Below, one piece after another: positions 39,090 through 59,563 of a stretch of 64,000 bases of DNA. A model generated the notes under the pieces. That model made no database searches, had not been told where the DNA came from, and saw only the letters and a program-made list of their open reading frames with translations. Source of the DNA: a virus (taxonomy: Duplodnaviria > Caudoviricetes); IMG/VR virus record IMGVR_UViG_2561511107_000003, positions 6,264 to 70,263 of that record. One strand, given 5' to 3'. Each line of letters starts with the position of its first letter. Positions within the stretch are counted from its first letter, which is position 1. Position numbers and translations under genes: made by a program.

Positions 39090-39094
39090 CCGTG

Positions 39095-40695: not shown

Positions 40696-41409
40696 TTACC
40701 GGCGTCGACGTCGGCGACGCTTTGGCTTACGCCTGTGACGGCGCAGCCACAGCAGACCGAGCGAGGCGAGGGTCGCGGCCACAGCCGCATTACGCGAACC
40801 CACCCAGCCGGTCCACGCCTCTCCCGCCGCCAGCCACATGCCGACGAACAGTGCCAGCCACACGGCCGACCACGCCGCGAGCAGCGCACGCCGCCGCAGC
40901 CACCACCGGCGCAGCGACGACCGTGACCGGGACGAACGCCGCACACCCGAGGACACCCGCTGCGGCGCACGCTGCCGGGGCACCCGGTTCCGCTGCTGCG
41001 TCCAGCCCGGCTCACGGTTACGGCGGTGCTGCTGCGCACGGAAAATCTCGATGCGGGCCGGGTTGGTGAGATTGTGGTCGTAGTTGTAGCGGGGCCGCTG
41101 ACGTGGCCCGTCCGGCACTACCGACGCACCGTGACGGATCCACCACTGCTCCCGGGCATCCAGGGTGGCGTCGTCCCACTGGCCCTCTTCAAGGACGAAC
41201 GCTCCGCCCACGATCAGGTCGGAGAACGGCTGGCTGGCACGGTGCTGCTGTTCGCGTTGCCACGCTGTTTGCCGCGACTGGCCGATGTAGCCGACCTCGG
41301 GTGCGGCACCGGGGACGGGTGCGCCGTTGGCGTCGACCGGGCGGGTGAGGACGCAGTACACGACACCGCGGCGACGCTCACCTGCCAGACGCTGCCGCTG
41401 CACAGTCAC
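40696..41409 (-). CDS. GIY-YIG-like nuclease with C-terminal membrane anchor
   Basis: GVVY...YIGQS...R..QH...E...P.YN, then two TMs and a basic tail. Confidence 0.75.
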   Translation of the reverse strand: MTVQRQRLAGERRRGVVYCVLTRPVDANGAPVPGAAPEVGYIGQSRQTAWQREQQHRASQPFSDLIVGGAFVLEEGQWDDATLDAREQWWIRHGASVVPDGPRQRPRYNYDHNLTNPARIEIFRAQQHRRNREPGWTQQRNRVPRQRAPQRVSSGVRRSSRSRSSLRRWWLRRRALLAAWSAVWLALFVGMWLAAGEAWTGWVGSRNAAVAATLASLGLLWLRRHRRKPKRRRRRRR

Positions 41410-43862
41410 CGCTCCGACTCCTCCGCGCCCTCAGCCAACTGGGACAGCAGATCCTCCTGAACGTGCTCACAGATCTGGTAGAGGCCATGCTTTGGCTTGA
41501 ACGCGTACTGGTCCTTTTCCACCAGTTCGCGCAGCACCTTCCGCGCCATCGACACCGAACACCGCAAGCCACGGGCACGCATCGGCTTCAACGCTTCATC
41601 GATCGCTTCGATGTCCATCGGCCCGCCGTTGGTGAAAAGAACCGACGCCACCGCTTCCTTCGCCCCGCTCACGTCGGCGTCACCAGCGGTCGCTGCCTGC
41701 GCGGCCACCGCCGTCGCACCCGATGACCATTGACCGGGGGGACGTCCGCCAATCTGCTTACCGGCTTCCGCCCACGCCACCCACTCCGGGCCGAACGCCT
41801 CCAACGTCTCCGGTGGCAGCTCAGCCGGGTAGCCAATCGGATTGTTGTCGTCATCGAACAGCAGGTCGTACACGTTCATCGGCGCGTCCTCGTCCGCCGG
41901 TATGTACGACTGGCGGGCATGCATCGTCTGCTGCTCCCCGTCCGCCACCAGGCACATCCCGGGCAGCTTCGGCAACTGACGCGGGTCGGCGGTCAACGTG
42001 CCACCGGTGACAACGGAGGTGAGGCCGTCCGTGGTGCGCCCGAGCAGGGCATAGCCGCCCGCGAGCATGTCCCGTAGACCCCGCGAGCCGGTGTCGCCGA
42101 GGGTTCCCATGTGGGTGCCGATGGTGATGCGGATGCCGCAGGCGCGCATCTTCCTGGCCATCAGTTCCAGTGGGCCGATGAACTCCTTGTCCATGGCGAT
42201 CTCGTGGAACTCGTCGATGGTCCACGACAGCACTGGCCCGTGGACTCTCGGATCCCAGTCGATGCCGCCTTCGCGTAGGCGACCCTTCCGGTCGTACCAC
42301 TGGTGGGACGAGATCATGTCGTAGCGGCGGTCCACCTCGCGCATCAGCGCGTCCCGCATGATGTAGGCGTCCTCGACGGTGCAGCCGGCGGCGTGCACGG
42401 CCCGGCGGAATTCGCCGTACGAGGCGTAGCGTTTGAAGTCGTGCAGGAACGAGGCGAACAGTCCGTGCGTTTGCCCCGTCGTCGGGTCGGTGCGGGCGAA
42501 CCAGCGTTCGATGATGAGCTGCTTGCGCAGGTTTTCTGACTTACCTGAACCGGTGGTGCCGGTGACGATCTTCGACGGGGCACCCCAGCCGTACCTGATG
42601 AACGGCTCCCACATTTCGGATCCGTCAATGAAGTAGCCGGTCAGCGCCACACCACGCTCGACGTCGATGGAGGCCGGACCCGCCCACAGCTTGGCCTGGG
42701 CGAGCGGCGGGTTCGGCTGCACCAGCATCAGCACGTCGTTGGGGTCGTCCTGTTCCACAAAGTTGAAGAACTTCCGGTTCACGCCGAACGTGCCGGCGAT
42801 CACCCGCAGCCTGCCCTTCGCGGACTGGTCGGTGAGCATGTCGATCGCGACCGCACCCGGCTTGGTGGCGTGGATGACGATGCCCCATCCGCCTACGACC
42901 TCCCGATACGACTCGGGCAGCAGGATCGTGTTCGGCACCGCACCGTTCGGGTCGTCGGCAACCCACCGCTGGGCCGCCACGACCCCGGGTGGACTGTGGT
43001 CCACCACCTGCGGCTGCGGTGCTGCCTCGACGGGCGTATTGGCTGGCTTGGTGTCGGCGGTCCGCGTGGAATCGACGTGTGCCAGGTAGGGGCGGGAGCC
43101 GACGACGGCCAGGCCAGCGAGCAGCCCACCGAACAGGGCTACATGCCCGGGACTGCTGGTCCAGTCCGCGATGTCGCCGGCACGTTCCCATCCGACCGCC
43201 GCAGCGGCCGTATACGCGGCGGCACGGGCACGCCTCGCAGCCAACCGCCGGCGCCGCTTCCCTGCCACCTCATCGGCCGGATCAAACCGGTGGTGTTTGA
43301 CGTCGTCGCGCAGCAGCCACCAGTTCGTCACCCGGTAGGCGGCCCAGGCGACACCGGGCAGCAGCGACCACTCGGCCAGTTCCATCCACCACGGCAGGTC
43401 GGCGCGGTCGTTGACAGCCCCCGCTACCCCGACGGCGGCGGCGGCACCGGCGACACGGATTCGCTCGTCAGCGGCGTTCCATACCCGTCTCCATGGCAGT
43501 CCGCCACGCGGCTTCGACTCGTTCTCGGCGGTCATCTCACAGCCGTGGTCGGGGCAGTAGCGGGTCGCAGTACCGGGAAGCAGCCACATGATCCGGTCGC
43601 AGGGCACCACCTGCATAGACGGCGGCCGTCCATCCTCAGGTTCAACCATGGTTTCGATACGGCCACGTGAGCAGCGGTGCCGGATGTGGGCGGTACGCCT
43701 GTTGTCGGCGTCGACAGGCACCGGATACGGGGTTTGACGCGCAATCGCGTCAACGTCCAGCCACACCCGCGACCACCCAGATGCGCCCTCCGGCGGCGAC
43801 GTCCGCCCACCTGCGGCGGGCCGTGGCGGCAGCGAAACCGGCCTCACCTCAGTCTTGGTCAT
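41406..43862 (-). CDS. traB: FtsK/SpoIIIE-family TraB-like dsDNA translocase
   Basis: TM segments, GTTGSGKS Walker A, WTIDEFHE Walker B, C-terminal winged helix. Confidence 0.85.
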   Translation of the reverse strand: MTKTEVRPVSLPPRPAAGGRTSPPEGASGWSRVWLDVDAIARQTPYPVPVDADNRRTAHIRHRCSRGRIETMVEPEDGRPPSMQVVPCDRIMWLLPGTATRYCPDHGCEMTAENESKPRGGLPWRRVWNAADERIRVAGAAAAVGVAGAVNDRADLPWWMELAEWSLLPGVAWAAYRVTNWWLLRDDVKHHRFDPADEVAGKRRRRLAARRARAAAYTAAAAVGWERAGDIADWTSSPGHVALFGGLLAGLAVVGSRPYLAHVDSTRTADTKPANTPVEAAPQPQVVDHSPPGVVAAQRWVADDPNGAVPNTILLPESYREVVGGWGIVIHATKPGAVAIDMLTDQSAKGRLRVIAGTFGVNRKFFNFVEQDDPNDVLMLVQPNPPLAQAKLWAGPASIDVERGVALTGYFIDGSEMWEPFIRYGWGAPSKIVTGTTGSGKSENLRKQLIIERWFARTDPTTGQTHGLFASFLHDFKRYASYGEFRRAVHAAGCTVEDAYIMRDALMREVDRRYDMISSHQWYDRKGRLREGGIDWDPRVHGPVLSWTIDEFHEIAMDKEFIGPLELMARKMRACGIRITIGTHMGTLGDTGSRGLRDMLAGGYALLGRTTDGLTSVVTGGTLTADPRQLPKLPGMCLVADGEQQTMHARQSYIPADEDAPMNVYDLLFDDDNNPIGYPAELPPETLEAFGPEWVAWAEAGKQIGGRPPGQWSSGATAVAAQAATAGDADVSGAKEAVASVLFTNGGPMDIEAIDEALKPMRARGLRCSVSMARKVLRELVEKDQYAFKPKHGLYQICEHVQEDLLSQLAEGAEESER

Positions 43863-43955
43863 CAGCAGTCACATCCCCCTCAAGCGGAGCCAGATTCCGG
43901 CGGTTACGGTGCAGGCCGGAAGTGAACCTCCGGCCTGCACCGATGGCGCCGGAAC

Positions 43956-45482
43956 TCAGTGCTCCTCCAGCACACGCGCGTCCACGCCCGTCTCCTGCAC
44001 TATCGCCGCGGCCTCTCCGTACTGCGACTTGATGTGCTGCAACGACGCCTGCACGGACTCGGCGGAGGCGTCCAGTTCGGCCTGCCACTGCTGGTTGCGG
44101 TCACGGGCGGCTTCGATGTGCTCCTGCACATCGGCGATGGTGCCGGCGGTGAGGGTCGTGGTGGCTTCCGTTGAACCCTGGGAGGCGTCGGCCCCGTACC
44201 GGGAGGTTTCCAGCCCTTCGGCGAGCGGCGCGAGGGCGTTGGTGACTTCGGCCCGGTTGCCGTCCATGGCCTCGACGGCGGCGGCGACTGCGGTGATGTG
44301 CTGTTCGAACGCGGCGGCCTCGGCCTGCTGGGCGCGCAGCGTAGCCAGGGCGTTCTCGTGCTTGGCGACAGCCTGGTTGTAGGTGACCAGGTCGCTGGTG
44401 TCGGTGCTCATGGTTCCTCCGTAGTCGCAGTTGCGGTTGTTGTTGGTACGGCTGGTTTCGGAGTGTTGGGCGGCCCGCGCTTCGGCGGTCATGGCTACTG
44501 CCTCGCTGACGGCCTCGGGGTGAATGTGGGGGAACTGCCGGCGTACGGCGGCTTCGATGGCGGCAATATCGGCGGGCTGCGGTTTCGTGTTCGGGTCGAT
44601 GTTGTTCAGGGCATCGTGGGCGGCGCGGGCGATGTCGTCGTGTTGGGGCATCCACCCGCCAGGCGGGCCGGGGGTGTGGGTGGCATCGGCGGCGGCCTGC
44701 TCGTACACGGACTCCGGATGTTGGTCACCGAAGCGTGTGCGCAGACCACGGGCGGTTTCGGTTTCTCCCAGTGCGCCGCTGTAGCCCCGTGCACGGTTCA
44801 GCCGGTACAGGTCCGCGGCGACGACGCTGACCTGCGACGGCACGTGGTAGCCGCCGTCGGTCCGGCGGGCGGTGGGGCACGTCGATTCGGTCGGGTGCAT
44901 CCACGACCCGTTGCGTTCGGTGATGGTGTCACCGCACACGGGGCAGGCGACGCGGGGCGCGTCCGTAACTGGCCGCTCGTCGACTACCGCGGGGGTGGCA
45001 GGCTGCGGCTGCCGCTCCTCCCCCACCGGATCGATGAGGGCGTGCCACGCCCTGCCGGCCATGCCCCGCTTCTCACGGCTAGCCTGCACCTTTCGCTGCA
45101 CGGCCGCATCGATGCGCCCCATCGGGGCGCGTCGACCGTCCGGGCCGACCGGGGGGCGGGCGGCTCGTTTGGCGCGCCGCTTCTCCAGCTTGTCTTCCCA
45201 CAGCCCGTGGTAAACGTCCGACAGGTACGCGCCCATGCCGGGCCGGTATTCGCCGGTCCCACCGGCCTGACGGTTGCGGCGGGCTCGGGTGGCCTGCCAT
45301 GCCCTCGCCAAAGCCTCGCGGCGGGCTGCGGCGAGGGTGGCCTTACGGTCCCGCTGCTTGTCGATCAGCTTCCACTCGCCGGCCTTCGCAGCCTTCAACG
45401 TGGTGACGGCGTCGGCGACGACACCGGGGATGGTCATGGCCCACAGGGACATAACCATTACCCCCAAGATCAGCTCAATCAT
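43956..45482 (-). CDS. Transfer/spread-associated protein (TM, Zn ribbon, coiled coil)
   Basis: N-terminal TM, CPVC..H...C, helical C-terminus; in the traB operon. Confidence 0.65.
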   Translation of the reverse strand: MIELILGVMVMSLWAMTIPGVVADAVTTLKAAKAGEWKLIDKQRDRKATLAAARREALARAWQATRARRNRQAGGTGEYRPGMGAYLSDVYHGLWEDKLEKRRAKRAARPPVGPDGRRAPMGRIDAAVQRKVQASREKRGMAGRAWHALIDPVGEERQPQPATPAVVDERPVTDAPRVACPVCGDTITERNGSWMHPTESTCPTARRTDGGYHVPSQVSVVAADLYRLNRARGYSGALGETETARGLRTRFGDQHPESVYEQAAADATHTPGPPGGWMPQHDDIARAAHDALNNIDPNTKPQPADIAAIEAAVRRQFPHIHPEAVSEAVAMTAEARAAQHSETSRTNNNRNCDYGGTMSTDTSDLVTYNQAVAKHENALATLRAQQAEAAAFEQHITAVAAAVEAMDGNRAEVTNALAPLAEGLETSRYGADASQGSTEATTTLTAGTIADVQEHIEAARDRNQQWQAELDASAESVQASLQHIKSQYGEAAAIVQETGVDARVLEEH

Positions 45483-45485
45483 TGG

Positions 45486-45863
45486 CTACCGGCCCATCCG
45501 CGACGACGCGTCGGTGCGGGTCGACACGAGGAACGAGATCGCGACGGCGGCGAGGGCGAGGCCGATGGTGCTGGTGCCCACCCAGTCGCCCATCGAGTCA
45601 CTCGCCCACCCCCACACTTCGCTGAGTTTGCTGCTGATCCATGCGGGCAGCGAGCCGTCGATGGACACGATCAGGGACGGCAGGACGAAAGCGCCGACGA
45701 CGGCGTACTGGTCGGGTTTGCGGTCCTTGGCGATGTCGATGCCGATGGTGACGAGCGCACCCAACGCGGCGATGATCATCACTGCGGAGGCGAGGCCGAC
45801 ACCGACCAGGCCGGCGCCGCCGATGATGGCGACGATGAAGCCGATCCAAGCGAGAGCCTTCAT
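45486..45863 (-). CDS. Four-TM membrane protein (Spd-like)
   Basis: Hydrophobic; AAGGAGGA RBS. Confidence 0.75.
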   Translation of the reverse strand: MKALAWIGFIVAIIGGAGLVGVGLASAVMIIAALGALVTIGIDIAKDRKPDQYAVVGAFVLPSLIVSIDGSLPAWISSKLSEVWGWASDSMGDWVGTSTIGLALAAVAISFLVSTRTDASSRMGR

Positions 45864-45884
45864 GGTGTTCCTCCTTCGAGGGGG

Positions 45885-46301
45885 TTAGCGGATGGCGGCG
45901 GCGACGCCGACACTGGTGGCGATGAATAGGGGCCCGCGTACGGGGTGGATGAGCATCCACTTCATGGAGTCGAGGGCGGCAGCGAAGGCGATCCCCGGGT
46001 AGCGGTAGGCACGGCACCACCGCTGGTACGGCACAAACTCGGGCGTGGTGGCGCTGTAGTCGGTGCGCCACACCACGCGAATCGACGGCGTGGACTCGCG
46101 GACGATCCACGAGTCGGCTGCATCCAGGTACATGACCCGGCCGACACGCCGTGCCGCGGCGACGGGACGGGCCGCCCTGAGTCGCTTCACACGGTCACGG
46201 CGGGTTACACTCGGCTTGACTTTCGCGCGCGCAGACGCGCGCGGGCTGTCCGACCCGCCGACGACACTGACATTTGGCAGTGTCACAACACTCTCCGTCA
46301 C
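45885..46301 (-). CDS. Hypothetical membrane-associated protein
   Basis: AAGGAG RBS; coupled ORF. Confidence 0.65.
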   Translation of the reverse strand: MTESVVTLPNVSVVGGSDSPRASARAKVKPSVTRRDRVKRLRAARPVAAARRVGRVMYLDAADSWIVRESTPSIRVVWRTDYSATTPEFVPYQRWCRAYRYPGIAFAAALDSMKWMLIHPVRGPLFIATSVGVAAAIR

Positions 46302-46513
46302 GGCCGGCTCCTTTCGTTCAGGTCGCGGGCAACCCGCGTTACTTCCTTCACGACGCCGTCAACATCGGCCCGGGGCATGGCCCGCGCCTCCGACATCACC
46401 CACTCCAGGGCGTGCCGCAGCCGCTCGTACGGGGACTCGGCATCGGCGATACGACCGACGCTCCAGGTGGTCCGGTTGGCGGCGGCGGCCCGCAGGGATT
46501 TGACCGACATCAC
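46298..46513 (-). CDS. Small hypothetical protein
   Basis: Coupled on both sides. Confidence 0.6.
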   Translation of the reverse strand: MMSVKSLRAAAANRTTWSVGRIADAESPYERLRHALEWVMSEARAMPRADVDGVVKEVTRVARDLNERSRP

Positions 46514-46767
46514 GCCTCCACGGGTGCGCTGAACTGGAAAAACGGCTCCCGGTCGACGTGTTCGCCCCGAATCTGGTGAAGGTCCACGTGGTACAGGTGC
46601 GCTTTCCGACGGTTGGTGCCGTCGCGCTCGGCGACAGCGATCAGATGCCTCGTGAGCAGGTCGTTGACGCTGGCCGGATCGTCGAGGTCGAGGGTGACGA
46701 GTAGCCGCCCCGTGGTGCGGACGGGCCGGTCACCGCGGAACGCCCGCAACTCGTACAGCTTCGGCAT
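46510..46767 (-). CDS. Small hypothetical protein
   Basis: AAGGAGGA RBS. Confidence 0.7.
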   Translation of the reverse strand: MPKLYELRAFRGDRPVRTTGRLLVTLDLDDPASVNDLLTRHLIAVAERDGTNRRKAHLYHVDLHQIRGEHVDREPFFQFSAPVEA

Positions 46768-46798
46768 CCGATCCTCCTTTCGGTGCTTTCTGCGCTGG

Positions 46799-47002
46799 TC
46801 AGATGAGCTGCGACAGCGCGTATCCGGCCAGGCCGGCGAGGCCGTTGCCAGCGACGATGACGGTGATGACGCGGTTCAGGCTGGTGTCGCCCCGGCTGTG
46901 GGCGCGGCGGGCGGGCTTGCCGCTGTCGGTGACGGTTCGGGTTTGGGTCGCGGGCGTGGCGGAGGGTCGGATGGTGGCGGCGGGCAAGGCGTCGGTGGTC
47001 AT
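46799..47002 (-). CDS. Small membrane protein
   Basis: GGGAGGA RBS; C-terminal TM. Confidence 0.6.
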   Translation of the reverse strand: MTTDALPAATIRPSATPATQTRTVTDSGKPARRAHSRGDTSLNRVITVIVAGNGLAGLAGYALSQLI

Positions 47003-47840
47003 CGGTCAGTCCTCCCAGTGACGGTCGTGGGCGATCAGGTGACGCGCGCCGCCGCATGACGGCGTCAGCGTCACGGGTGACGGTGCGGGCGATGTGACGG
47101 CGCTGCGGGCGGGCTGACGCTCCGCCCGCCAGTACGGCGTCAGCGTCGATGCCGGTGGCGGCCACGTCGTGGAGGTCGCCGGCGGGGTGACGGCCGTAGC
47201 GGGTCGAGATGACGGGAAGGCGAGGTCGTCAGTCACGTCCGTCACCTGCCGTCAGCTCGGCCACGATCCGGTCGTGTTCGGCGCGCAGGATCTGCTCGGC
47301 GTCCGCGACGGCCAACTCAGCCAGCCATTTGGGCCGGTTGGTGCGGGCCGCCGACTCGGCGCCTTCCACCGCCTCAGCCATCCATGTGCCGGCTGGCTCC
47401 ACACCGAGAGCCATGCAGAGCAGCAGAAACACCTTCATGCCGTCCCGCTTGCTGCCGCCGCCGTCGACTACCTGCCGGGCCTTTTTGGCGGCGTAGTCGC
47501 GGACCTGGCTGACGGTCCAGTCCCGGAATCGCTCGTCGATGAGGTCGCGGCTAAGGGGGCGGACGGCGGTGACGTCAGTACGGGTGCGTTTGACGGTGAC
47601 GTTGCTGCTGCTGGCAGTTGGAGTGACGGTGTCGGTGGTGGTGGCTTCGGTGACGGGGATGACGGTGGTGACGGGCGTCTGTGGGCGGCTGACGGTGACG
47701 GTGGGCGTCTCCGCGTCGCCGTCACTGCTGGCGTCACGGTGGGGCGTCTGCGTCGGTTCGACGTCGATGATGTGACGGTGACGGTCGGCGTCACCGGTCG
47801 GGATCTGCGTCACCTCAGCCCAGGCGTCACCGGTGACGGC
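46858..47840 (+). repeat. Dense TGACGG repeat field (candidate clt/TRS)
   Basis: About 19 TGACGG copies on + plus variants in about 1 kb. Confidence 0.75.
47006..47245 (-). CDS. Small repeat-rich protein
   Basis: Thr/Pro-rich ORF overlying the TGACGG repeats. Confidence 0.45.
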   Translation of the reverse strand: MTDVTDDLAFPSSRPATAVTPPATSTTWPPPASTLTPYWRAERQPARSAVTSPAPSPVTLTPSCGGARHLIAHDRHWED

Positions 47841-48779
47841 GTCGGGCTTTGTCGCTTCCACGATGCCGCGCACGATCGACAGGCGGCGCAGCAGCTTCGC
47901 CCTGACCTTCGGGTTCTCGGCGAGGTCGATCCACTTGCAGGCGGCCTGCGTCTGCCGCATGACCCGCCAGCCGAGCCACGCGATGTAGAGGCGCTTGATG
48001 CGGCCCGGCTTGGGGTTGGCACGGGTCGTGTTATGGAAGTGGTTGAGCAGCCGGGACAGCCGGTCCATGCGGCGCAGGGTGGCGACCTCGGACACGCTGA
48101 TGCTGGCCGGTTCCGCTAGGCCGAGGGTGACGGCGATTCGACGCCACGGGATACCGCGGCTGGTGGGCGGCGGGTACTTGCCAGGGTTGCGGTGGTGCAG
48201 GATGTCCCGCTGCTCGATCAGGCTCTCGTACCACATGTAGGCGGCGACACCTGCGGCGGCGATGCGGAAAAGGCGCAGGTCGCCGCTGTCGGCGTGGACG
48301 GCGGAGAGGCTGGCGGAGATGCCGGCGAGGATGAACACGGCCCGGTGGGCGCGGCCGAGGTCGCCGTGGCGGTACAGGTGGCGGGTGGCGCGGCGGCTGG
48401 CGTCGAAAATGCCGAGTTCGATGAATGCGAACAGGACGAGCCGCAGCGTCCAGTGGATTTCGATGACATCGGTGAAGAACTGCCACATGCCGAGGGCGAC
48501 GACGATGGTGGCGATGGTGGCGACGACACGGGTGATGGCCCGGTCGGCGGCGGTGAGGTCGTCGGCTTTGCGTTCGGTGGCGGGCTTGCGGCGACGGCGC
48601 AGCAGTTTGACGGCGAGGATGCCGCCGAGGGCGATGGCGACGGCGGTCATCGTGTTGTCGGGGTTGTTGAACCAGGTGACGGCGTTGTCGGTGAGCGGGT
48701 CGAGCCAGCCGCGCGTGGCCGGAGTGTAGGGCTCGACCTGCACTCCGGGGTCGATGTACTTGGCGGGCTGCATGGTCAC
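47229..48779 (-). CDS. SpdA/DUF2637-like membrane protein
   Basis: Multiple TMs, repeat-rich linker, helical C-terminus; first gene of the transfer operon. Confidence 0.7.
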   Translation of the reverse strand: MTMQPAKYIDPGVQVEPYTPATRGWLDPLTDNAVTWFNNPDNTMTAVAIALGGILAVKLLRRRRKPATERKADDLTAADRAITRVVATIATIVVALGMWQFFTDVIEIHWTLRLVLFAFIELGIFDASRRATRHLYRHGDLGRAHRAVFILAGISASLSAVHADSGDLRLFRIAAAGVAAYMWYESLIEQRDILHHRNPGKYPPPTSRGIPWRRIAVTLGLAEPASISVSEVATLRRMDRLSRLLNHFHNTTRANPKPGRIKRLYIAWLGWRVMRQTQAACKWIDLAENPKVRAKLLRRLSIVRGIVEATKPDAVTGDAWAEVTQIPTGDADRHRHIIDVEPTQTPHRDASSDGDAETPTVTVSRPQTPVTTVIPVTEATTTDTVTPTASSSNVTVKRTRTDVTAVRPLSRDLIDERFRDWTVSQVRDYAAKKARQVVDGGGSKRDGMKVFLLLCMALGVEPAGTWMAEAVEGAESAARTNRPKWLAELAVADAEQILRAEHDRIVAELTAGDGRD

Positions 48780-48829
48780 CGGCCCTCGCCTCCTCTGGTT
48801 GGCGTTCGCGTTCTCAGCTGGACCGTGCC

Positions 48830-48876
48830 ATAGTGCGAACAGTTTGACAAGCTAGAACTGTACGAACAGTAGCACG
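48830..48876. promoter_or_regulatory. Divergent promoter/operator of the transfer operon
   Basis: TTGACA at 48844; CGAACAGT twice plus an inverted ACTGTACG. Confidence 0.55.
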
Positions 48877-48975
48877 ACTCCAGACGGAGGGGCATCTATG
48901 AACACGGCGGTGATCGCGAACACCGGGAACGGTGGGTACGCTCACCGCAGATTCCAGCGGCGGAGAGCAGGGGCG

Positions 48976-49242
48976 ATGGGGGACGACGACAACCGCGACG
49001 AGGTCGCCGAGCTTGAAGCCCGAGTGCGTGCCGGCGAATGGTTGAAAACCGGGCCGGTCGCGGTCCTGCTCGGCATGGGGCGCACCAAGGTCCACACGCT
49101 GGTGAAACAGGGAGTGATCGGGCATCGGAAGATTCCCGGCGCCCCACGGAAGCCGCAGCGGGAGTGCAACCCGAAGGATGTGTTGCGCCTGCTGGAGGAG
49201 GGTCGCCGCGAGTTCCACGGCGAGTCTGAGGATCCGAGCTGA
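48976..49242 (+). CDS. Excisionase-like HTH regulator
   Basis: WLKTGPVAVLLGMGRTKVHTLVKQGVI. Confidence 0.7.
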   Translation: MGDDDNRDEVAELEARVRAGEWLKTGPVAVLLGMGRTKVHTLVKQGVIGHRKIPGAPRKPQRECNPKDVLRLLEEGRREFHGESEDPS

Positions 49243-49421
49243 GCCATGTCCACTCCCTTACCGGCATGCTGGTGCGCTGTCGGGTTGAGCGTGGTCGGGC
49301 CAGCAGCCCGCCGGAACGCCATCTGCGCACCGTCGGCCTGCCAACCGGTCCGGATTGGAGTGCGCTCGGTCATACGCTGGGGTGTGGATGGTGCTGCGCT
49401 GACCTACGGGGGGCGGAAACG

Positions 49422-50825: not shown

Positions 50826-51112
50826 TGACGAGCCACATCGATCCCGCTACCCTGCGCACACGAGACGTCGTCATGCCATACCGGCGGCCAGGGCAGCCCT
50901 CCCGGCGGTCTGACCCGAAAACAACGGGCCGCAGTTGATCTAGGTCCTTGCCTGGGAGACCTGCTGGGCCCACCGAGCCCGGCATGGCGCGTTCCACGTC
51001 CACCGAAAGTGACCTCCCGCCACTCGCATCGGATGCGAAGATCTCGCATCTACTGCGACCCGCTTGTCAACATGCAGACATGGAGGGAAATCGGCGACGA
51101 GATGGGGCTGCT

Positions 51113-51302: not shown

Positions 51303-51349
51303 TGTAAGGCGCCTTGCAATCCACTGCAAGGCGCCTTACACTTTTGGGT
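51303..51349 (+). promoter_or_regulatory. Promoter with a double palindromic operator
   Basis: TTGCAA-17-TACACT; TGTAAGGCGCCTTGCA and its perfect inverse 6 bp apart. Confidence 0.8.
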
Positions 51350-52203: not shown

Positions 52204-52233
52204 GACCCCCGGCTCGGCGGCGAGCCGGGGGTC
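52204..52233. terminator. Stem-loop terminator
   Basis: GACCCCCGGCTCG GCGG CGAGCCGGGGGTC. Confidence 0.7.
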
Positions 52234-53098: not shown

Positions 53099-53303
53099 GG
53101 CTACCTCCGGTCGGGGCGGTCGGATGGGCGGAATCCGGCATCAGTGATTGGGTTTCGGCATCGCGGGTGGGGCAGTTCTGCGGACAGACGTCCACGGTGG
53201 TGTCGGTGTCGCACACGCACACGGCCGCCGAGGGCTGGTAGCGGACCCGGCGGGGGCGACGGCCGTACGACGCCGCCCCCGCCTGAAAGTCAGCCCGACT
53301 CAT
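53088..53303 (-). CDS. Small Cys-containing protein
   Basis: CVC...CPQNC; coupled ORF. Confidence 0.45.
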   Translation of the reverse strand: MSRADFQAGAASYGRRPRRVRYQPSAAVCVCDTDTTVDVCPQNCPTRDAETQSLMPDSAHPTAPTGGSREH

Positions 53304-53500
53304 CGCTGCCGCCACTCGGGGGAGCTGCCCCGCGAACTCGTCCGCCAGGCCATGCCGTCGCTGGCGGCCTTCACCTGCGGCGTCGCTTTGAGCGCCCGCC
53401 GTGCGTCTTCCAGCCGCTTCTGGTTGGCGGGGGTCGGGGTGTCTTTCGCGTTCTGCTGGGCGTGCAGGAACGCGTCTGCCTTCTGCTTGAATGGGTTCAC
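53300..53500 (-). CDS. Small hypothetical protein
   Basis: GGAGG RBS before GTG. Confidence 0.6.
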   Translation of the reverse strand: MNPFKQKADAFLHAQQNAKDTPTPANQKRLEDARRALKATPQVKAASDGMAWRTSSRGSSPEWRQR

Positions 53501-53631
53501 GGTCGGCCCTCCGTTTGGGTGCGGGTCGACCACCCCTACGGCGCTCGAATCGCCGTAGGAGTGATCCTCTGGTTGGGGATCGGGGCGGGGTGCGGTCGGC
53601 TTGTCCAGGGCGTGACCGCACCCCGCCGGCT

Positions 53632-53766
53632 CTACTTACGTCCGGTGTTGCCGCCGTTGAGGGCGGTGTCGACGGCGGTGGTGCGCTTCGACAGGGGCAG
53701 GTCCGCGGTGGCGCGGATGGTTTGCCCGACCTGCTGCGCCCGGTCGCTGCTGGTGTTTTTCGCCAT
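53632..53766 (-). CDS. Small hypothetical peptide (44 aa)
   Basis: AAGGAG RBS. Confidence 0.55.
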   Translation of the reverse strand: MAKNTSSDRAQQVGQTIRATADLPLSKRTTAVDTALNGGNTGRK

Positions 53767-53849
53767 GTCTGCTCCTTCGTTAGGGGTGGTCGTTCGCGTC
53801 TGCGGCGACCCCGCGCGGGCCGGTTGGTGCACGATCCGGCCCGACGGGC

Positions 53850-54110
53850 TCACGTCGCAGATGAGCGGGTGGGCTGCTGCGCTGGCTCAGGCTTGCCGGC
53901 GCGCCACTGCCGAAAGTTGCGGGCGTACACCCAGCCGTAGGCGGCGCAGGAGATGAGGAATCCCCACTGGCGGGTGTGGACCGCGTAGGCGAGCCACAGG
54001 GTTTGGGCGCCGATCCCGACAGCCCACCCCCACGGGCTGCGGCGGCCGGCGAGGTACAGGCCGGTGACGCCGACGGCGGTGAGCAGCCACGACCATAGTT
54101 GCGGGTTCAC
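53850..54110 (-). CDS. PnuC-like short membrane protein
   Basis: GLYLAGRRSPWGWAVG...LWLAY...NFRQW; three TMs. Confidence 0.7.
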   Translation of the reverse strand: MNPQLWSWLLTAVGVTGLYLAGRRSPWGWAVGIGAQTLWLAYAVHTRQWGFLISCAAYGWVYARNFRQWRAGKPEPAQQPTRSSAT

Positions 54111-54159
54111 GGGCCGGTCCGCGCGGTGCGGGCGAGGTTGTCGTGCGGGTGGACGCGCA

Positions 54160-54360
54160 TTAGGCCGGCTGCTCGTCGCTGGCGGGAAGGGGGGTCAGGC
54201 CGATGACGACGACGTTGCTGAGTCCCTGTGTGGCCGCGATCTGCTGGCTGATTGCAGCGAGATCGTTGGCTGTAGCGATGGGCCGTGTCGGCTGGTAGAT
54301 GCAGTTACCGAAGCCGAAGCCGCTGCCGGTCACGTGGCTGTAGGCGGCGAAGTAGCGCAT
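54160..54360 (-). CDS. Small hypothetical protein, paralog A
   Basis: GGAGG RBS; MRYFAAY...GFGNC. Confidence 0.7.
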   Translation of the reverse strand: MRYFAAYSHVTGSGFGFGNCIYQPTRPIATANDLAAISQQIAATQGLSNVVVIGLTPLPASDEQPA

Positions 54361-54449
54361 GTTGCCCTCCAAGGGGTTGATCCGTTGTCTTTTCTCCGCC
54401 TGCCGCACACAGCTGCGATGGTGAGCAGGCAACCAGCGGTAGGTCAGAT

Positions 54450-54641
54450 CTAGCTTTCGGGCACGTCCTGAACGTTTATGACAATCAAACGGTCGTGGCC
54501 AGACTTGGCGATCTGAGCAGCGGCACGAGCCGGGTCGGTAAGCGGATGAAAGTCGAACTGTCCGACGCAGTTACCAACCCCGACACGGGTTCCGCCCGGC
54601 TCGGACCGCTCGTAGTAGTAGGCGACGAAGTAGTAGCGCAT
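54450..54641 (-). CDS. Small hypothetical protein, paralog B
   Basis: GGAGGA RBS; MRYYFVAY...GVGNC. Confidence 0.7.
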   Translation of the reverse strand: MRYYFVAYYYERSEPGGTRVGVGNCVGQFDFHPLTDPARAAAQIAKSGHDRLIVINVQDVPES

Positions 54642-54660
54642 GGGTCCTCCGGATGCCCGG

Positions 54661-55353
54661 CTAACGCTGACCGTCGGCAAACAGTCGGGTAGCCTGTTTG
54701 ATCAACTCGTCCTGCGCAGCGAACAGCCACATCAGCGCTCTGGCGTCCGCTCCGTCGCCGTGGTACCGCTCCTGCGGATACCAGTCACCCAGGTCCACAC
54801 CGGCCGTCTCTTCCAGCTCGGACAGCGGCGGTACCTTCGCCAGGACATGGTCCGGCAGTTTGCGCATGATGGTGGCCAGGTCGTACGCCTGCCCGGAAAG
54901 CCGCCGGGCAGCCTGCAGGGCTGCACGACGTTGATCAGCGAGCGTGAGTAGCTGCGCCTGCCAAAACCCGTCAGGGGTGCCCCGCAGCTGCTCGTACGCG
55001 TCAACGGCCCGCTGCCGGGCCTGCTGGTACTCGCCCACCAGTGGGGCAATGTCCCTGAGGAGAGCGACGACCTGCCGGTTGTGGCGGGCCACCCGCCACA
55101 GCATGTAAGCGGCGTGCTCTTCGGCGTAGGCGGACCGGCGTGCCTCGGACACGGCCTGCCCGATGTCGGAGCTTTGGGGGTGACTGTCTTCGGCGGCTTT
55201 CCAGGCGTCCTTGACGCTGCCGGGGATCTTTGGCTCCGGTTCGTCGCCGGTGAACGGTTTGAACTGCCACCTGGTGCCGGTGTTGTGCTGCTTGGCGGTA
55301 ATGAGGTGAGGATGATGCCAGGCGGGGACTTTGTTGTTGCCTACGTTGGCCAC
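54661..55353 (-). CDS. Hypothetical helical protein
   Basis: 230 aa; GGAGG RBS. Confidence 0.7.
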   Translation of the reverse strand: MANVGNNKVPAWHHPHLITAKQHNTGTRWQFKPFTGDEPEPKIPGSVKDAWKAAEDSHPQSSDIGQAVSEARRSAYAEEHAAYMLWRVARHNRQVVALLRDIAPLVGEYQQARQRAVDAYEQLRGTPDGFWQAQLLTLADQRRAALQAARRLSGQAYDLATIMRKLPDHVLAKVPPLSELEETAGVDLGDWYPQERYHGDGADARALMWLFAAQDELIKQATRLFADGQR

Positions 55354-55380
55354 TACTGCCTCCGGGTTGCGATCTCTTGG

Positions 55381-55536
55381 TTAGCGGTTGCGGTCCTGGG
55401 CGGCGATCATCCGCGCGGTGCGGAGGGACGCAGCGGTCTGAACACCGGCCGCCTTGTCGCGCTGCTCCCGGGCCTGTTCGCGCAGGGTTTCGGTGACCGA
55501 CGGGATCGCGCTATCGGACGCGGTCCTGTTGTTCAT
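55381..55536 (-). CDS. Small hypothetical protein
   Basis: AAGGAG RBS. Confidence 0.55.
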   Translation of the reverse strand: MNNRTASDSAIPSVTETLREQAREQRDKAAGVQTAASLRTARMIAAQDRNR

Positions 55537-55623
55537 GTGCGCTCCTTGCTGTCGGGTGCTGGTCTGTGTAGACCCTGCGTGGGTCCGGGCCACTCGACCG
55601 GACCCCACAGGCTCGACGACAGG

Positions 55624-55788
55624 TCAGAGGCCGTAGCCGAGCGAGGCGTTGATGGCGGCCCGACGCGAGTTGGCGCGACCCGGACGGATCCGCACGGTCT
55701 GCCGTTCCCCGTCGGCACCGCGGATGGTGCGGGTCGGGCGGATCTCGGTGGTCGTGTGCCCGATGGTGACGGAAGCGTTCGTGAACAT
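55624..55788 (-). CDS. Small hypothetical protein
   Basis: GGGAGA RBS. Confidence 0.55.
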   Translation of the reverse strand: MFTNASVTIGHTTTEIRPTRTIRGADGERQTVRIRPGRANSRRAAINASLGYGL

Positions 55789-55868
55789 GAGGGTTCTCCC
55801 TGGATTTTGGAGGTGCCTTCGGTGGCGGGCTCCCGACACGGCATGGGGGTACGGGGCCACCCGATCTG

Positions 55869-55979
55869 CTACTTGCTGCTGCTGTTCTTGCGCAGGTCGT
55901 CGCGGATCCGCTCCACCTCGACGGCGTTACGGTTGTCCTTGTCCCGCTGCGCGGCCAGCGAGCGCACCTCGCCGGCCAT
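55869..55979 (-). CDS. Small peptide (36 aa)
   Basis: TGATG coupling to the upstream ORF. Confidence 0.45.
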   Translation of the reverse strand: MAGEVRSLAAQRDKDNRNAVEVERIRDDLRKNSSSK

Positions 55980-56350
55980 CACTCGACCCCGGCCCCGGCG
56001 TGGGGTAGGGCGGTGGGGGCAAGCCAAGACCCGAGCAGCAGCACCGCGTTACCGGCCTTGCCGCCGTCGAGGTGGGCGACACGAGAACCCACCTGCACCG
56101 ATACCTGCGGCACCGGCCGGTCTGCGTTCCGGTCGAATGTGACGGTCACCTTGACTCGCACACCGGCGGGGTCGGTGACGGCCGTCGACGTGGCACACGG
56201 GCCGTCGTTGTGGCGGCGGTGGCACCACAGCGGGTGTGTGCCGTGGTCGGCCGGCAGTTCGTCGAGGGTGGTGGGCTTCAAATCGTCGTAGCTGGGCGAG
56301 TCGTTGCGGGTCTCGTGGCCTGCGCGGACCCGAGCCCACCAGGCGTTCAC
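55979..56350 (-). CDS. Hypothetical protein (HPLWC..H motif)
   Basis: Coupled ORF. Confidence 0.6.
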   Translation of the reverse strand: MNAWWARVRAGHETRNDSPSYDDLKPTTLDELPADHGTHPLWCHRRHNDGPCATSTAVTDPAGVRVKVTVTFDRNADRPVPQVSVQVGSRVAHLDGGKAGNAVLLLGSWLAPTALPHAGAGVE

Positions 56351-56541
56351 CGGACTGGCCTTGTCGTGTACGCGCCGCGGTCGTAGCCGTACGACACGGG
56401 CGACTGGTAGGGGCCGTTCACCGCGGCCGGCACTTCGACCTTCCGGCCATCCGCGTACGTGACGCGCAGCTGGTCATTGCGGCGACGCACCCGGTGGATC
56501 ACCGCACTCGGCGTATTGCTGGCGGCCTGCGGCGACATCAC
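56347..56541 (-). CDS. Small hypothetical protein
   Basis: Coupled ORF. Confidence 0.55.
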   Translation of the reverse strand: MMSPQAASNTPSAVIHRVRRRNDQLRVTYADGRKVEVPAAVNGPYQSPVSYGYDRGAYTTRPVR

Positions 56542-57056
56542 GCACCCCGCCTCGAGGTGTTGATACGGTCGGCGAACTGCTGCGGCAGCATGAGCTGGGC
56601 GCGGTCACGGGCGGCGGCATGGGTGTCCCGCAGCTCGCGGAAGGTGCGCGGCTGGGTCGGCTGCGACAGCGACTCAACCAGCTCGGTGACCTTGGCGGTG
56701 TCCTCCGGCGACTCGAACCGGTCCAGTAGGTCGTTAAGGTAGTCGGCCTGCGCCTGACTGGCGGTGTCACGACGGCGCTGCGCCTCGTGCAGGTCACGGG
56801 TCAACGCGTCGCGGATCGCGTCACGAACCCCGTCGGGGTGAACGTTGTTGAGCCCGCCTTCGCGGATAACCGCGTAGATGGTGCGGTAGACGTCCCGGTC
56901 GGCGACGGTGAAGGACAGGCCGTGTTCCCGGTTGCCGCCGGTGCGGGTCATGGTGGTGATGGAGTAGCCGCCGTCTACGGTGATTTGGGCCGTAAGCTCG
57001 TACCGGCCGTAGGGCCTGGTAACGGGATCTGGGCGCGCGGCAGTACCCTGCTGCAT
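56538..57056 (-). CDS. Hypothetical protein, first of the small-ORF operon
   Basis: AAGGGAA RBS. Confidence 0.65.
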   Translation of the reverse strand: MQQGTAARPDPVTRPYGRYELTAQITVDGGYSITTMTRTGGNREHGLSFTVADRDVYRTIYAVIREGGLNNVHPDGVRDAIRDALTRDLHEAQRRRDTASQAQADYLNDLLDRFESPEDTAKVTELVESLSQPTQPRTFRELRDTHAAARDRAQLMLPQQFADRINTSRRGA

Positions 57057-57139
57057 AGCGGTTCCCTTCGGGGAGTCCGTTGGGGCCCCTGCACCGGTCG
57101 TCCGCCAAGACTTGAGCCGGTGTGGGGGTTTTTCCTTGC

Positions 57140-57190
57140 AGCACTAACCTTGCCAAACTGGCATGTGAAAGTCAAGGGTGCACATGCCAA
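57140..57190 (-). promoter_or_regulatory. Promoter with TGGCATGTG inverted repeat (putative GntR operator)
   Basis: TTGACT-17-CAAGGT on the minus strand; TGGCATGTG...CACATGCCA. Confidence 0.6.
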
Positions 57191-57928
57191 TTAGGCGGAG
57201 AAGTTGTACACCACCTCGTACGCCTCCGTGTCAAGCACCATCCGCGTCACGTCCACGCACCGCCCCTTAGACCGCGCAAACCGCGTGATCTCCAGAACCA
57301 TCGACTTACTCCGAGGAAGCCGCAGCAGTTCGGCCTCATCCGGAAGTGGAGGGCGGCCCACGATCCGCTCCGTGAACTCATCCGGCCCCCAACCCTGATC
57401 GGCCAGCCTGCCAAACGTCCCACCCGGGCCGGTGTCGTGGTAGACGATCGCGGTCCCCCGGGCCAGGTCCACAGGGATGTGCGACTCGGCGAGTTGCACA
57501 CGTCGGCCGTCGACCTCGAACACTCGGAACCGGCGCACGACCGGCGAGTCGGCGTCGATGCCGAACGCTTCCGCCACGAACGCGGGGGCCGGCACCTCAT
57601 CAACGCGGGCGTCAACGTCGCGCCACCGCTGCTCGGTGTCCTTGTCCTGAATCGCCTTGCCACTCCCCCACTGCTTCTTCGTCACGCGTCCCGGCGACTC
57701 ACGGACGATGCGGGTGAACGGCTCACGGACGGTACTGGCAGCCCCCTGTCGGGAGATGATGGCACCTTCGGCGCGCAGTGTGGCTAGCGCCTGCTGGACA
57801 GCGCCCCGCCCCATCCCGTGCTCGGCCATCATCTCGGTGATGGACGGCAGTGTGTCTCCGGGTCGCAGCTTGCCCGAGCGAATGTCGTCTCTGAGCTGGG
57901 CCGCAAGGCTGGCGGCACTCCGTGGCAT
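57191..57928 (-). CDS. GntR/HutC-family regulator (KorSA-like)
   Basis: IRSGKLRPGDTLPS...VQQALATLRAEG, plus a UTRA domain. Confidence 0.92.
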   Translation of the reverse strand: MPRSAASLAAQLRDDIRSGKLRPGDTLPSITEMMAEHGMGRGAVQQALATLRAEGAIISRQGAASTVREPFTRIVRESPGRVTKKQWGSGKAIQDKDTEQRWRDVDARVDEVPAPAFVAEAFGIDADSPVVRRFRVFEVDGRRVQLAESHIPVDLARGTAIVYHDTGPGGTFGRLADQGWGPDEFTERIVGRPPLPDEAELLRLPRSKSMVLEITRFARSKGRCVDVTRMVLDTEAYEVVYNFSA

Positions 57929-58089
57929 GTCAAACCCCTAACTGTCTTATGACAGCAGGCTACGCGCATGTAAGGGCCGCCTTGTCCGGACGGTACGGAC
58001 AAGCTTTGCCGCGCCGCCAGCTTGCACGTCCTTCGCCATGTAAGCACTTACAGCTTGACCTGCATGTGACAGTAAGGAATGATCAGGTC

Positions 58090-58338
58090 ATGGAGCTAAG
58101 CGAAATCATGCTGCTCGTCGAAGCCCACAAGAAGGCTCGCAGTGGCGACGCAAAGAAGATCCGGCGACGCGCCGGACTGACCATGGCCCACGTAGCCGCC
58201 GTCGTTGGCGTCAGCGAATCAACCGTCAGCCGATGGGAGGGCGGTTCCCGCAAACCACGAGGCGAACACGCACTCAGGTGGGCCGCCCTGCTCAACGAGC
58301 TGGAGCGCGCGCAGGCCGAGCCGGTCGCAGCCGCCTGA
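58090..58338 (+). CDS. XRE HTH protein
   Basis: GLTMAHVAAVVGVSESTVSRWEGG; TTGACC-17-AATGAT leaderless promoter. Confidence 0.85.
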   Translation: MELSEIMLLVEAHKKARSGDAKKIRRRAGLTMAHVAAVVGVSESTVSRWEGGSRKPRGEHALRWAALLNELERAQAEPVAAA

Positions 58339-58342
58339 ACCA

Positions 58343-59563
58343 ATGACCGACCCCCGACCGAACGGGCGTTGGTTTCGGGACATCTACCGCGATGCCGTGT
58401 GGGAGTCCGAGGAACTGACGGCCCAAGAGAAGGCCGTCGCCGAGACGTACGCACGGCACGCACGCGACGAACACGACGACAAGAGCGCAACTGCTGACCT
58501 CGCGTGGACGACCTACCCGCGACTCATGGCCAAGGCGGGCATCGGGCGGCGAGCGAATGTGAGCACCGCCGTCGCGAGCCTGGTGAGGAAGGGGTGGCTG
58601 ACCGTGGTCCGTGAGGCGAGTCGACGGCCGACCCTCTATCGCCTAACGATTCCCGTCGGTGGTTTCGATGGTGGAACTACCAGCCAGGCGAGCCGTAGTT
58701 CCGATGACGGTACTACGGTAGTTCCGAGACCAGCAGCTGGTAGTTCCACTTCCGCCGCCGGTAGTTCCGATGGCGGAACGCAACCATTAGGACCATTAGA
58801 AAATCAACCACTAGCCTCTCTCTCTGACGCTCGCACATCAGTGCCCGTACCTAGCGTGCTCAACGACGACCGAGAGAGAGACGAGAAGTCTTCAACCAAA
58901 GACCCCAACCCCATCGGGCCGCTACAGCGATTCGTCATCAAGCGCGGCGCACCTCAACACCTCGCCACCCAGGTAGTCGAGTTCATCGAAGCCGCCAACG
59001 CCATCGACGGATTTGGCTGGTGGATCACCGCCAGCGGCAACGGCACCCTCGCCGCGCAGGTAGCCACCGCCCTCGACGCGTTGGCCGCACCAATCGGAGG
59101 CGACAACCAGGACGACTGTTCGACGTGCGGTGACACGGTGCTATCAGTTCCCGGACACGCCGACTCACGGGGCGATGAGGGGGTGAGTTACGGGGTAACT
59201 GGTTCCGCTGCGCCTACCCAGCACCAACCCCCTTCCTCCCCCACCGTCGAACCTGACGCCTCGCCGCGCTCCGACAGGCAGGAGAAGACGAGAGCAGACC
59301 TCGCCATCATGGCTACCGCCACCCGCCTCGCCGACCCCTACCAAGGCGACATGACCGTCATCGAGTCGCGACGCCTGGTAAGCCACGTCGTCACCGTGCT
59401 CGCCAAGGGATGGTCGGAGCAGGTCGTAGCGGACGCACTGGCCACCGACGTCGCCGGCCTCGACTCGGTTGCCGCTGGTCTGATCGGGCGGATGATGGAA
59501 CTTGCGGCCACCCCTGTCCAACCGGGCCGCGACGAAACGTTGCTGCCGAGATGCATCGCCTAG
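58343..59563 (+). CDS. Second replication-initiator-like HTH protein with internal iterons
   Basis: LAWTTYPRLMAKAG...LVRKGWL...PTLYRLTIP winged helix, then a repeat linker. Confidence 0.65.
   Translation: MTDPRPNGRWFRDIYRDAVWESEELTAQEKAVAETYARHARDEHDDKSATADLAWTTYPRLMAKAGIGRRANVSTAVASLVRKGWLTVVREASRRPTLYRLTIPVGGFDGGTTSQASRSSDDGTTVVPRPAAGSSTSAAGSSDGGTQPLGPLENQPLASLSDARTSVPVPSVLNDDRERDEKSSTKDPNPIGPLQRFVIKRGAPQHLATQVVEFIEAANAIDGFGWWITASGNGTLAAQVATALDALAAPIGGDNQDDCSTCGDTVLSVPGHADSRGDEGVSYGVTGSAAPTQHQPPSSPTVEPDASPRSDRQEKTRADLAIMATATRLADPYQGDMTVIESRRLVSHVVTVLAKGWSEQVVADALATDVAGLDSVAAGLIGRMMELAATPVQPGRDETLLPRCIA
58658..58808. repeat. GTAGTTCC(GATGGYGGAACTAC) iteron-like repeats plus ACCATTAG x2, putative origin 2
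   Basis: Five copies or half-copies, followed by an AT-richer patch. Confidence 0.65.

Follow-up and report, generated by a model that had tools for sequence, protein, structure and literature searches.

A probable integrated siphophage of the Micromonosporaceae carrying a plasmid-type DNA-transfer module

The window analysed here is a stretch of 64,000 nucleotides from a tailed virus (Caudoviricetes), corresponding to bases 6264–70263 of the 70,263-bp IMG/VR provirus record IMGVR_UViG_2561511107_000003; positions are window coordinates unless marked as record positions. It holds the genes of a siphophage, on the plus strand up to 40533, followed by a block of about 22 kb (40674–62596) that lies mostly on the minus strand and resembles a plasmid or an actinomycete integrative and conjugative element (AICE) in content, including a gene for a TraB-like DNA translocase. 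Two further phage genes, designated H and X, follow the block. The G+C content is 64–74%, and genes were accordingly called by third-position G+C. Close relatives of this DNA are Micromonospora and Verrucosispora chromosomes, and the host lineage is taken to be a Micromonospora-like actinomycete. The provirus record has a CheckV completeness of 74% and is cut at gene boundaries. Its main features within the window are the following.

1..17804, plus strand: early and replication region, with genes for a pentapeptide-repeat protein, DUF3799 exonuclease, ERF, RNase T-like exonuclease, RusA-like protein, WhiB, DnaN clamp, single-stranded DNA-binding protein, HTH_36 protein, DnaB helicase and C5 methylase (Pfam, PHROGs)
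18064..37702, plus strand: virion module, with genes for TerL, portal, MuF, protease, decoration, major capsid, neck, major tail, tape measure, Dit, gp37-like and other minor tail proteins (Pfam, PHROGs)
18064–19578, plus strand: TerL
29717–32818, plus strand: tape measure protein, 1033 amino acids (aa)
37961..40533, plus strand: lysis cassette and methylase, comprising endolysin (37961–38779), a holin-like gene (38724–39089), a gp gene (39376–39696) and an N6/N4 DNA methylase (39796–40533)
40586..40673, no strand: left repeat copy, a GC hairpin terminator, followed by 11 codons left over from the 3' end of an H-like gene
40696..41409, minus strand: 237-aa protein, translationally coupled to TraB, with a possible GIY-YIG-like N-terminus, one transmembrane (TM) helix and an Arg-rich tail
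41406..43862, minus strand: TraB-like double-stranded DNA (dsDNA) translocase of the FtsK/SpoIIIE family, 818 aa (profile, fold, and dN/dS)
43956..47002, minus strand: coupled genes upstream of TraB, encoding a 508-aa protein with an N-terminal hydrophobic segment, a 125-aa protein with 3 TM helices, and proteins of 138, 71, 85 and 67 aa; candidate Spd-type partners
47229..48779, minus strand: 516-aa membrane protein with 2–3 TM helices, Spd-like
62597..62684, no strand: right repeat copy, the hairpin terminator together with the genuine 3' end of gene H
62652..64000, minus strand: right-arm phage genes H (62652–63080, helix-turn-helix (HTH)) and X (63338–64000, excisionase-like HTH)

An earlier note, made from the sequence alone, had described the phage part as complete, and this is borne out: matches to Pfam and PHROGs between 1 and 40533 make up a full siphophage gene set; the reading frames of the virion, lysis and replication genes scanned are all open, and none of these genes is an obvious pseudogene. 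In the phage collection, megablast with both arms gave no nucleotide match to any record, and the portal has no tblastn match in the plasmid collection. Relatives of the portal among sequenced phages belong to genomes of 37–59 kb, but relatives of the capsid include 184-kb Streptomyces phages, so that homology is no guide to packaging capacity. The lysis cassette is 80–90% identical to copies in other Micromonospora-group genomes, and in the likely source run the depth over 38–40.6 kb is 2–5 times that of its flanks, which indicates that several prophages in one genome share this cassette. Contigs of four runs (X1, X2, X3 and X4) join 39680 to 40529, and represent lysis cassettes from which the N6/N4 methylase gene is missing.

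By itself the 818-aa protein shows a weak match to EccCa only; its Pfam FtsK_SpoIIIE match is below threshold, it has no FtsK_gamma or HTH_12 match of its own, and phmmer returned nothing from the PDB sequences, where matches came from profile and fold searches alone. A profile of 20 homologues finds FtsK, EssC and EccC chains in the PDB (E 1e-5 to 3e-4), and within this clade PF01580 is matched at E<=0.1 by 19 of the 20 members, FtsK_gamma by 4/20 and HTH_12 by 3. The AlphaFold model (predicted local distance difference test, pLDDT, 76.6, with the core above 85) recovers in Foldseek the conjugation coupling protein TcpA, EccC and FtsK motors, with E values of 3.5e-13 to about 1e-10. Its ATPase core spans residues ~300–710, the Walker A motif lies at 435–442, and G435, G438–K441 and D550–E551 are invariant in the alignment of 20; the motor of the protein has the FtsK-like RecA fold, including the Walker A and Walker B motifs. 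In the model the C-terminus is predicted to be winged-helix-like (helices 729–782 and a strand at 794–797), while the N-terminus consists of long helices (124–268), with no segment above a Kyte-Doolittle threshold of 1.5. The gene is under purifying selection, the ratio of nonsynonymous to synonymous substitution (dN/dS) being 0.18 against the homologue in genome G003 and 0.22 against that in G002.

The genes coupled to TraB are less easily assigned. The 237-aa protein has no Pfam or PHROG match, though tblastn shows that its N-terminal part is conserved beside TraB in relatives; an Atlas feature score of 0.85 to GIY-YIG clusters is a lead only. The 508-aa protein and the small coupled genes are conserved with TraB in genomes G001–G003, and no family match was found for the proteins of 508, 125, 138, 71, 85 and 67 aa. 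A relaxed Pfam search with 11 unexplained proteins gave nothing above noise. The 516-aa protein is likened to Spd through its orthologue at locus L004, which matches DUF2637. The coupled transfer operon recognised in the earlier note is therefore present as an FtsK-fold protein with membrane proteins, whereas the nuclease named there shrinks to the GIY-YIG lead and the SpdA-like gene to the DUF2637 match of one orthologue.

Distant homologues of TraB, with 26–31% identity over 30–44% of the protein, are found on 21 plasmids, which belong to Streptomyces, Kitasatospora and Nonomuraea. The gene order on a 58.5-kb Kitasatospora plasmid, namely GntR, small genes, a 534-aa protein, further genes, TraB-like and a 242-aa protein, is that of the window block, and no names of phage structural genes occur in the 50.7 kb of the plasmid annotation viewed. 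On this basis the block resembles a plasmid transfer region. No TraB homologue was found by tblastn in the phage collection, nor by the TraB profile in metagenome contigs, the latter in a scan with a few peptide patterns that is weak evidence of absence.

The left end of the element is found in the 6.2 kb preceding the window. A large serine integrase (PF00239 match at record 4217–4666) is encoded 0.6 kb left of the window, and only 28 bases separate its start from the end of a fragment of a short-chain dehydrogenase/reductase (SDR) gene (record 3898–4176). The fragment comprises 93 codons, covers positions 142–235 of the 236 in the Pfam adh_short_C2 profile, and is broken at the region of the catalytic motif; no second SDR piece occurs elsewhere in the 70-kb record. 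The SDR gene is thus the candidate target of integration, and record 3898–4205 the candidate attL. Since the remaining half of the gene is absent from the record, attR should lie past window position 64000, and the whole window should be interior to the integrated DNA. The element measures at least 66 kb. A large serine recombinase at the prophage end, next to a disrupted target gene, is the arrangement of a temperate siphophage; attR is outside the record, so that the att sites which the earlier note proposed to locate are represented by the candidate attL. The same 6.2 kb also hold genes for an Xer-like tyrosine recombinase and a UvrA-like protein, 75–81% conserved in related genomes but not adjacent there. 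The Xer-like gene, among host genes, and the serine integrase are the only recombinase genes in the record; in the window there is neither a match to the tyrosine and serine recombinase families (PF00589, PF00239) nor a tRNA. The right host flank was also sought through synteny around the UvrA-like gene in G001–G003, where the neighbours proved not to be conserved. When 57000–64000 was compared with 201 genomes, 181 had some match, nearly all of them short, and matches above 300 bases are listed for ~10 only, which indicates that the right end is not core host DNA.

In related genomes, TraB and siphophage genes tend to occur together. Close TraB homologues (76–83% identity) are present in G001, G002 and G003, and in 3/3 the siphophage genes are on the same side, convergent to TraB. 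A profile survey places the TraB clade in at least 13 of 401 Micromonosporaceae genomes. In the 11 newly found genomes, the 20 kb downstream of TraB were surveyed with PHROGs (146 open reading frames (ORFs) of at least 130 aa), and in nine they hold genes for tape measure, major tail, Dit/minor tail or tail terminator proteins, convergent to TraB. Together with G001–G003 this makes 12 of 14 other Micromonosporaceae genomes, a raw count for this clade alone, and it supports the co-occurrence that the earlier note had wished to see checked. No integrase was seen between TraB and the tail genes in the 12 linked genomes. In the two exceptions, the place of the tail genes is taken by DNA with a transposase and a trio of recombinases, or by a primase.

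The element in G003 is collinear with the window from an exonuclease gene, through portal (60%), capsid (58%), tail genes, TraB operon, HTH pair and several small genes, to a lipoprotein gene. It is bounded by host genes, and the 3' end of a metallo-beta-lactamase-fold gene is repeated on either side of it over 189 bp (77% identity); in 11 of the 11 closest relatives the flanks abut (with an overlap of ~187 bp), as expected of an empty site. No PF00589 match occurs on the contig, and its one serine recombinase is at the right end; phage-like genes for TROVE, GIY-YIG, RNA ligase and dATP/dGTP pyrophosphohydrolase proteins lie between this recombinase and the TraB block. Given the empty sites, the bracketing repeat and the one recombinase, phage, TraB block and sole integrase in G003 are a single 106-kb insertion. 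The junction seen in the window recurs in run X2, which has another organism label and stems from another study: 40556–50901 is found there at ~94% identity on one contig, with the phage-side hairpin joined to the block, and the tail-fibre region 36009–37996 on a 25-kb contig.

The most probable explanation, held with some reservation, is that the window lies wholly within a single integrated temperate siphophage, which carries a plasmid-type dsDNA-transfer module and belongs to a prophage lineage of the Micromonosporaceae, because a block without recombinase sits between phage genes and within DNA that split the SDR gene. The earlier note had already treated phage and transfer genes as one element. 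The split SDR gene, the tail linkage in 12/14 genomes and the single insertion in G003 agree with this, while the repeat at 40.6 kb and the relatives that lack the block do not.

The remainder of the block, which extends to about 62596 and not to 59563 as first supposed, together with the genes at its far end, contains the following features.

48898..50825, plus strand: divergent pair of a 114-aa HTH_17 protein (excisionase-like fold) and an HTH_3 protein of 519 aa; G002 and G003 have kept this pair along with the TraB operon
51314–52189, plus strand: Phd/YefM-domain protein, 291 aa
52424–53098, minus strand: Nudix hydrolase
53300..57056, minus strand: 12 small genes downstream of the GntR gene, one of them phrog_2421, a small membrane protein
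57191..57928, minus strand: GntR/UTRA (HutC-type) regulator, by domain matches
58205..59563, plus strand: 452-aa weak candidate for a replication initiator (Rep), with a match to a PHROG of O-like replication-initiation proteins (E 4e-7) and sub-threshold winged-helix matches
59591–60456, plus strand: pair of an Xre-HTH and a PIN-like protein
60915–61523, minus strand: lipoprotein, with a homologue within the G003 block
61585–62418, plus strand: PP2C-type phosphatase

Regulators of the GntR/UTRA type serve as Kor/TraR repressors on Streptomyces plasmids. The Xis-like protein, the Nudix hydrolase, the KorSA-like GntR regulator and the Rep listed in the earlier note correspond to the HTH_17, Nudix and GntR/UTRA domains and the 452-aa protein; the HTH_17 score is sub-threshold, equivalence to KorSA and Pif is a matter of domains only, and the Rep assignment is weak, the 452-aa protein having no Pfam match to Rep families. 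The Nudix gene is multi-copy in related genomes, with up to 5 copies, and several of the 12 small genes are common to G002, G003 and G140. The Xre-HTH/PIN-like pair, 87% identical in G140, and the Phd/YefM protein are candidate addiction or defence modules.

The block is bracketed by an imperfect direct repeat of 90 bp, 80% identical, whose copies (40586–40673 and 62597–62684) are spaced 22,011 bp from start to start. The statement that no integrase, att or tRNA separates phage and transfer genes thus remains correct for recombinase and tRNA, but must be amended for this att-like repeat. A third copy of the hairpin, inverted, lies at 63279–63327. There is no third copy of the 90-bp repeat near the left end of the prophage (attL), and no equivalent in G001–G003. 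Relatives without the block also exist: in G193 (at two loci), G041, G196 and G035 the lysis cassette or methylase is joined directly to H or X, which identifies H and X as genes of the right arm of the phage. Phage homology of relatives extends to 40581–40630, and runs X3 and X4 diverge at 40553–40625; parts of the stretch left uncovered in these two runs are by themselves no evidence of absence. In this copy, the 22-kb block therefore came in, by insertion or exchange, as a cassette placed at the 3' end of H. Without a recombinase of its own, such a block could leave the chromosome only together with the phage. Short near-identical copies of the GC-rich hairpin (40586–40625, 62597–62640, 63279–63327) are found in many Micromonospora-group genomes, and these may all be intergenic palindromes of one terminator-like family, serving as joints for recombination.

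Several observations weigh against a single phage equipped for transfer. Bracketed by repeats and absent from relatives, the block looks like a separate inserted element; the earlier note had named an att boundary near 40.6 kb as the finding that would count against its proposal, and with a repeat at that place and relatives of the lysis cassette lacking the block, this objection applies in part. The synonymous divergence (dS) from G003 is lower for TraB (0.58) than for capsid (0.86) and portal (1.2), which means that module and virion genes do not share a common history and that modules have been exchanged. At 66 kb or more, against 37–59 kb in phages with related portals, packaging of the whole genome is not assured. 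A scan of the IMG/VR viral contigs with a few peptide patterns, weak as evidence of absence, gave no homologue of TraB or its profile, so that no virion-derived genome with a transfer module was found. For clt, which in TraB systems is a cis-acting site of 8-bp repeats to which TraB binds, no convincing array was found, the lone 8-mer cluster (8 copies, 47567–47831) being in a coding linker; this is a T/V/P-rich low-complexity part of the 516-aa protein, and the cluster is not conserved, with 3 copies in the G003 orthologue. ParA/ParB and a RepSA-type initiator were not found among the 81 ORFs scanned, in the latter case as the earlier note had said, and the Rep candidate is weak, as described above.

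Some of these points would also follow if an AICE had inserted site-specifically at the 3' end of H, lost its integrase and decayed to a mere passenger in the prophage. The repeat, made up of the 3' end of a target gene and a terminator around exactly 22,011 bp, is of the same style as that of the G003 element; the relatives without the block, the AICE-like content (Tra, Spd-like proteins, GntR, Nudix, Rep candidate and toxin–antitoxin (TA) pair) and the multiplication of the Nudix gene to as many as 5 copies in related genomes would fit as well. We nevertheless consider a nested AICE unlikely: the block has no tyrosine or serine recombinase and no tRNA, purifying selection acts on TraB and its neighbours, all of them intact, G001–G003 have no equivalent repeat, and the clade is tied to tail genes in 12/14 genomes with no integrase seen between. 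A tandem of phage and AICE at one chromosomal att was likewise rejected, as the block has phage genes H and X on its right side and the record lacks the other SDR half.

The constancy of this position beside tail and lysis genes across the family, and the lack of an identified clt, would suit a function for the phage itself rather than conjugation, in which the TraB/Spd-like proteins move replicating or excised phage DNA across septal cross-walls within one mycelium or exclude competitors. Against this stand the plasmid-style genes for control and maintenance in the block (GntR, Nudix, Rep candidate, TA), which occur as in plasmid transfer regions, and the proposal is rated as rather improbable. 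The size of the element raises a further possibility, of a large integrative and conjugative element (ICE) with phage cargo: a conjugative element would have captured a prophage that is defective and forms no infectious virions, its genome being oversize or its packaging signal lost. The elements here (at least 66 kb, with ~95 kb implied by the CheckV completeness of 74%) and in G003 (106 kb) exceed the phages with related portals, but the open virion, lysis and replication genes and the 184-kb capsid relatives make this the most remote of the alternatives, with very little chance of being correct.

If, as preferred here, the window belongs to one temperate siphophage with a transfer module, its life cycle might run as follows. 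The element would enter the chromosome through the large serine integrase, into the host SDR gene. Its module would comprise a membrane-anchored FtsK-fold TraB, small Spd-like membrane proteins, a GntR repressor, a Nudix protein and a candidate Rep. Excision by the integrase would yield a circle with two possible routes: lytic growth and packaging, or release from the GntR repressor, upon which TraB would pump the dsDNA circle into a neighbouring hypha, with Spd-like proteins promoting the spread of the circle across cross-walls. On the evidence of gene content, two modes of spread may be open to the element, in virus particles and as naked DNA passed from hypha to hypha. A wider proposition, speculative and on balance doubtful, is that of a family-wide lineage of integrated siphophages which possess a virion-independent dsDNA route through phage-borne TraB/Spd, by way of an integrase-less cassette that moves between unrelated phages through recombination at short sequences consisting of a gene end plus terminator.

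Were both routes real, temperate phages of filamentous actinomycetes could escape a receptor-limited host range and reach phage-resistant neighbours through mating, and a lytic option could form part of large conjugative elements. The plasmid-phage concept known from pZL12 and pFP4 would be extended to integrated prophages as a conserved lineage. A recombinase-less 22-kb cassette with att-like repeats also raises the question of how such modules pass between phages.

Tailed-phage particle genes have reportedly been combined with tra-type transfer on one replicon in the Streptomyces plasmid-phages pZL12/phiZL12 and pFP4, said to have been described by Zhong et al. in 2010 and Chen et al. in 2012, respectively. 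The 86-kb pSLE1 of S. leeuwenhoekii is syntenic with pZL12 and has phage particle genes, ParA/ParB and two integrases (PMC4487206). The present element is like these three in joining tailed-phage particle genes and tra-type transfer in one unit, pZL12 and pFP4 being likened by description. Unlike the pZL12/pFP4 type, which is extrachromosomal with ParA/ParB, it is integrated by a serine recombinase in an SDR gene and has no ParA/ParB among the 81 ORFs of a record that is incomplete on the right. The large serine integrase at the prophage end and the insertion within a protein-coding gene presumably liken it to phiC31-type actinophages, from which the 22-kb transfer/replication block sets it apart; the window has no nucleotide match to the phage collection.

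The module itself is comparable to the TraB/Spd systems of Streptomyces plasmids (pSVH1, pIJ101) and AICEs (pSAM2, pMR2), with an FtsK-fold ATPase, small membrane proteins, a GntR gene at the head and Nudix nearby (PMC4447253, PMC2440964). TraR of pSVH1 is of the GntR type, and SpdB2 homologues occur on some actinophages (PMC4447253). The block differs from plasmid and AICE TraB systems in the low identity of its TraB (26–31% over 30–44%) and in having no int-xis pair, tRNA target, RepSA/RepAM-type match or demonstrated clt. An AICE such as pSAM2, SLP1 or pMEA300 has its own integrase and Xis at the att end, in place of which the block offers only the sub-threshold HTH_17. In comparison with an AICE-type att, the copies of the window repeat share 80% identity and are placed in a protein-coding phage gene, at its 3' end, with no tRNA in the window. 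AICEs of this kind also have modules for Rep (RepSA, RepAM or Prim-Pol), Tra, Spd, Kor (GntR) and Nudix (Pif); of these, Tra, GntR/UTRA and Nudix are present at the domain level, Pif and KorSA equivalence being domain-based, and Rep is represented by the O-like PHROG match (E 4e-7).

Physical joining of a prophage to conjugation functions, with potential co-transfer, is likewise a property of phage-ICE tandems and of Phi1207.3: the former consist of a prophage and an ICE of the type IV secretion system type, with their own integrases, which have accreted next to each other at one common site (Huang et al. 2026, Sci Adv; PMC13651849), and the latter is a conjugative prophage of Streptococcus (PMC4260502). 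Unlike the tandems, the window has its block inside the phage, one integrase only, no third repeat at the left end and a TraB system of one protein; PMC13651849 contains none of the terms AICE, Streptomyces and Actinomycetota. In the literature search, no title or abstract was found that describes integrated TraB-bearing prophages as a lineage.

Several genes of the window and its relatives deserve mention in their own right. The pentapeptide-repeat protein of the early region (1727–3109, 460 aa, Pfam E 7e-63) is possibly a DNA mimic or anti-defence protein. One 8-mer occurs six times within 210 bases (10624–10832), inside the HTH_36 gene that precedes DnaB; these copies are candidate iterons of a phage origin. 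The 587-aa tail-region protein at 35939–37702 corresponds to phrog_26064 from end to end (E 2e-215) and has no tblastn match in the phage collection, and the counterpart of this region in G003 has a PhoD-like phosphatase domain. In a Verrucosispora relative, a solitary Cas7 gene (L003:16313–17161, Pfam E 8e-79) lies 4 kb downstream of TraB, and no further cas genes were noticed over the 22 kb of this locus. Downstream of the TraB homologue in G597, three adjacent tyrosine recombinases and a transposase (L079:3139–7419) may represent insertion of a trio that displaced the phage part. The TROVE (Ro60-like) protein, GIY-YIG endonuclease and T4 Rnl1-type RNA ligase of the G003 element (L042:3189–7177) are possibly a set for RNA repair.

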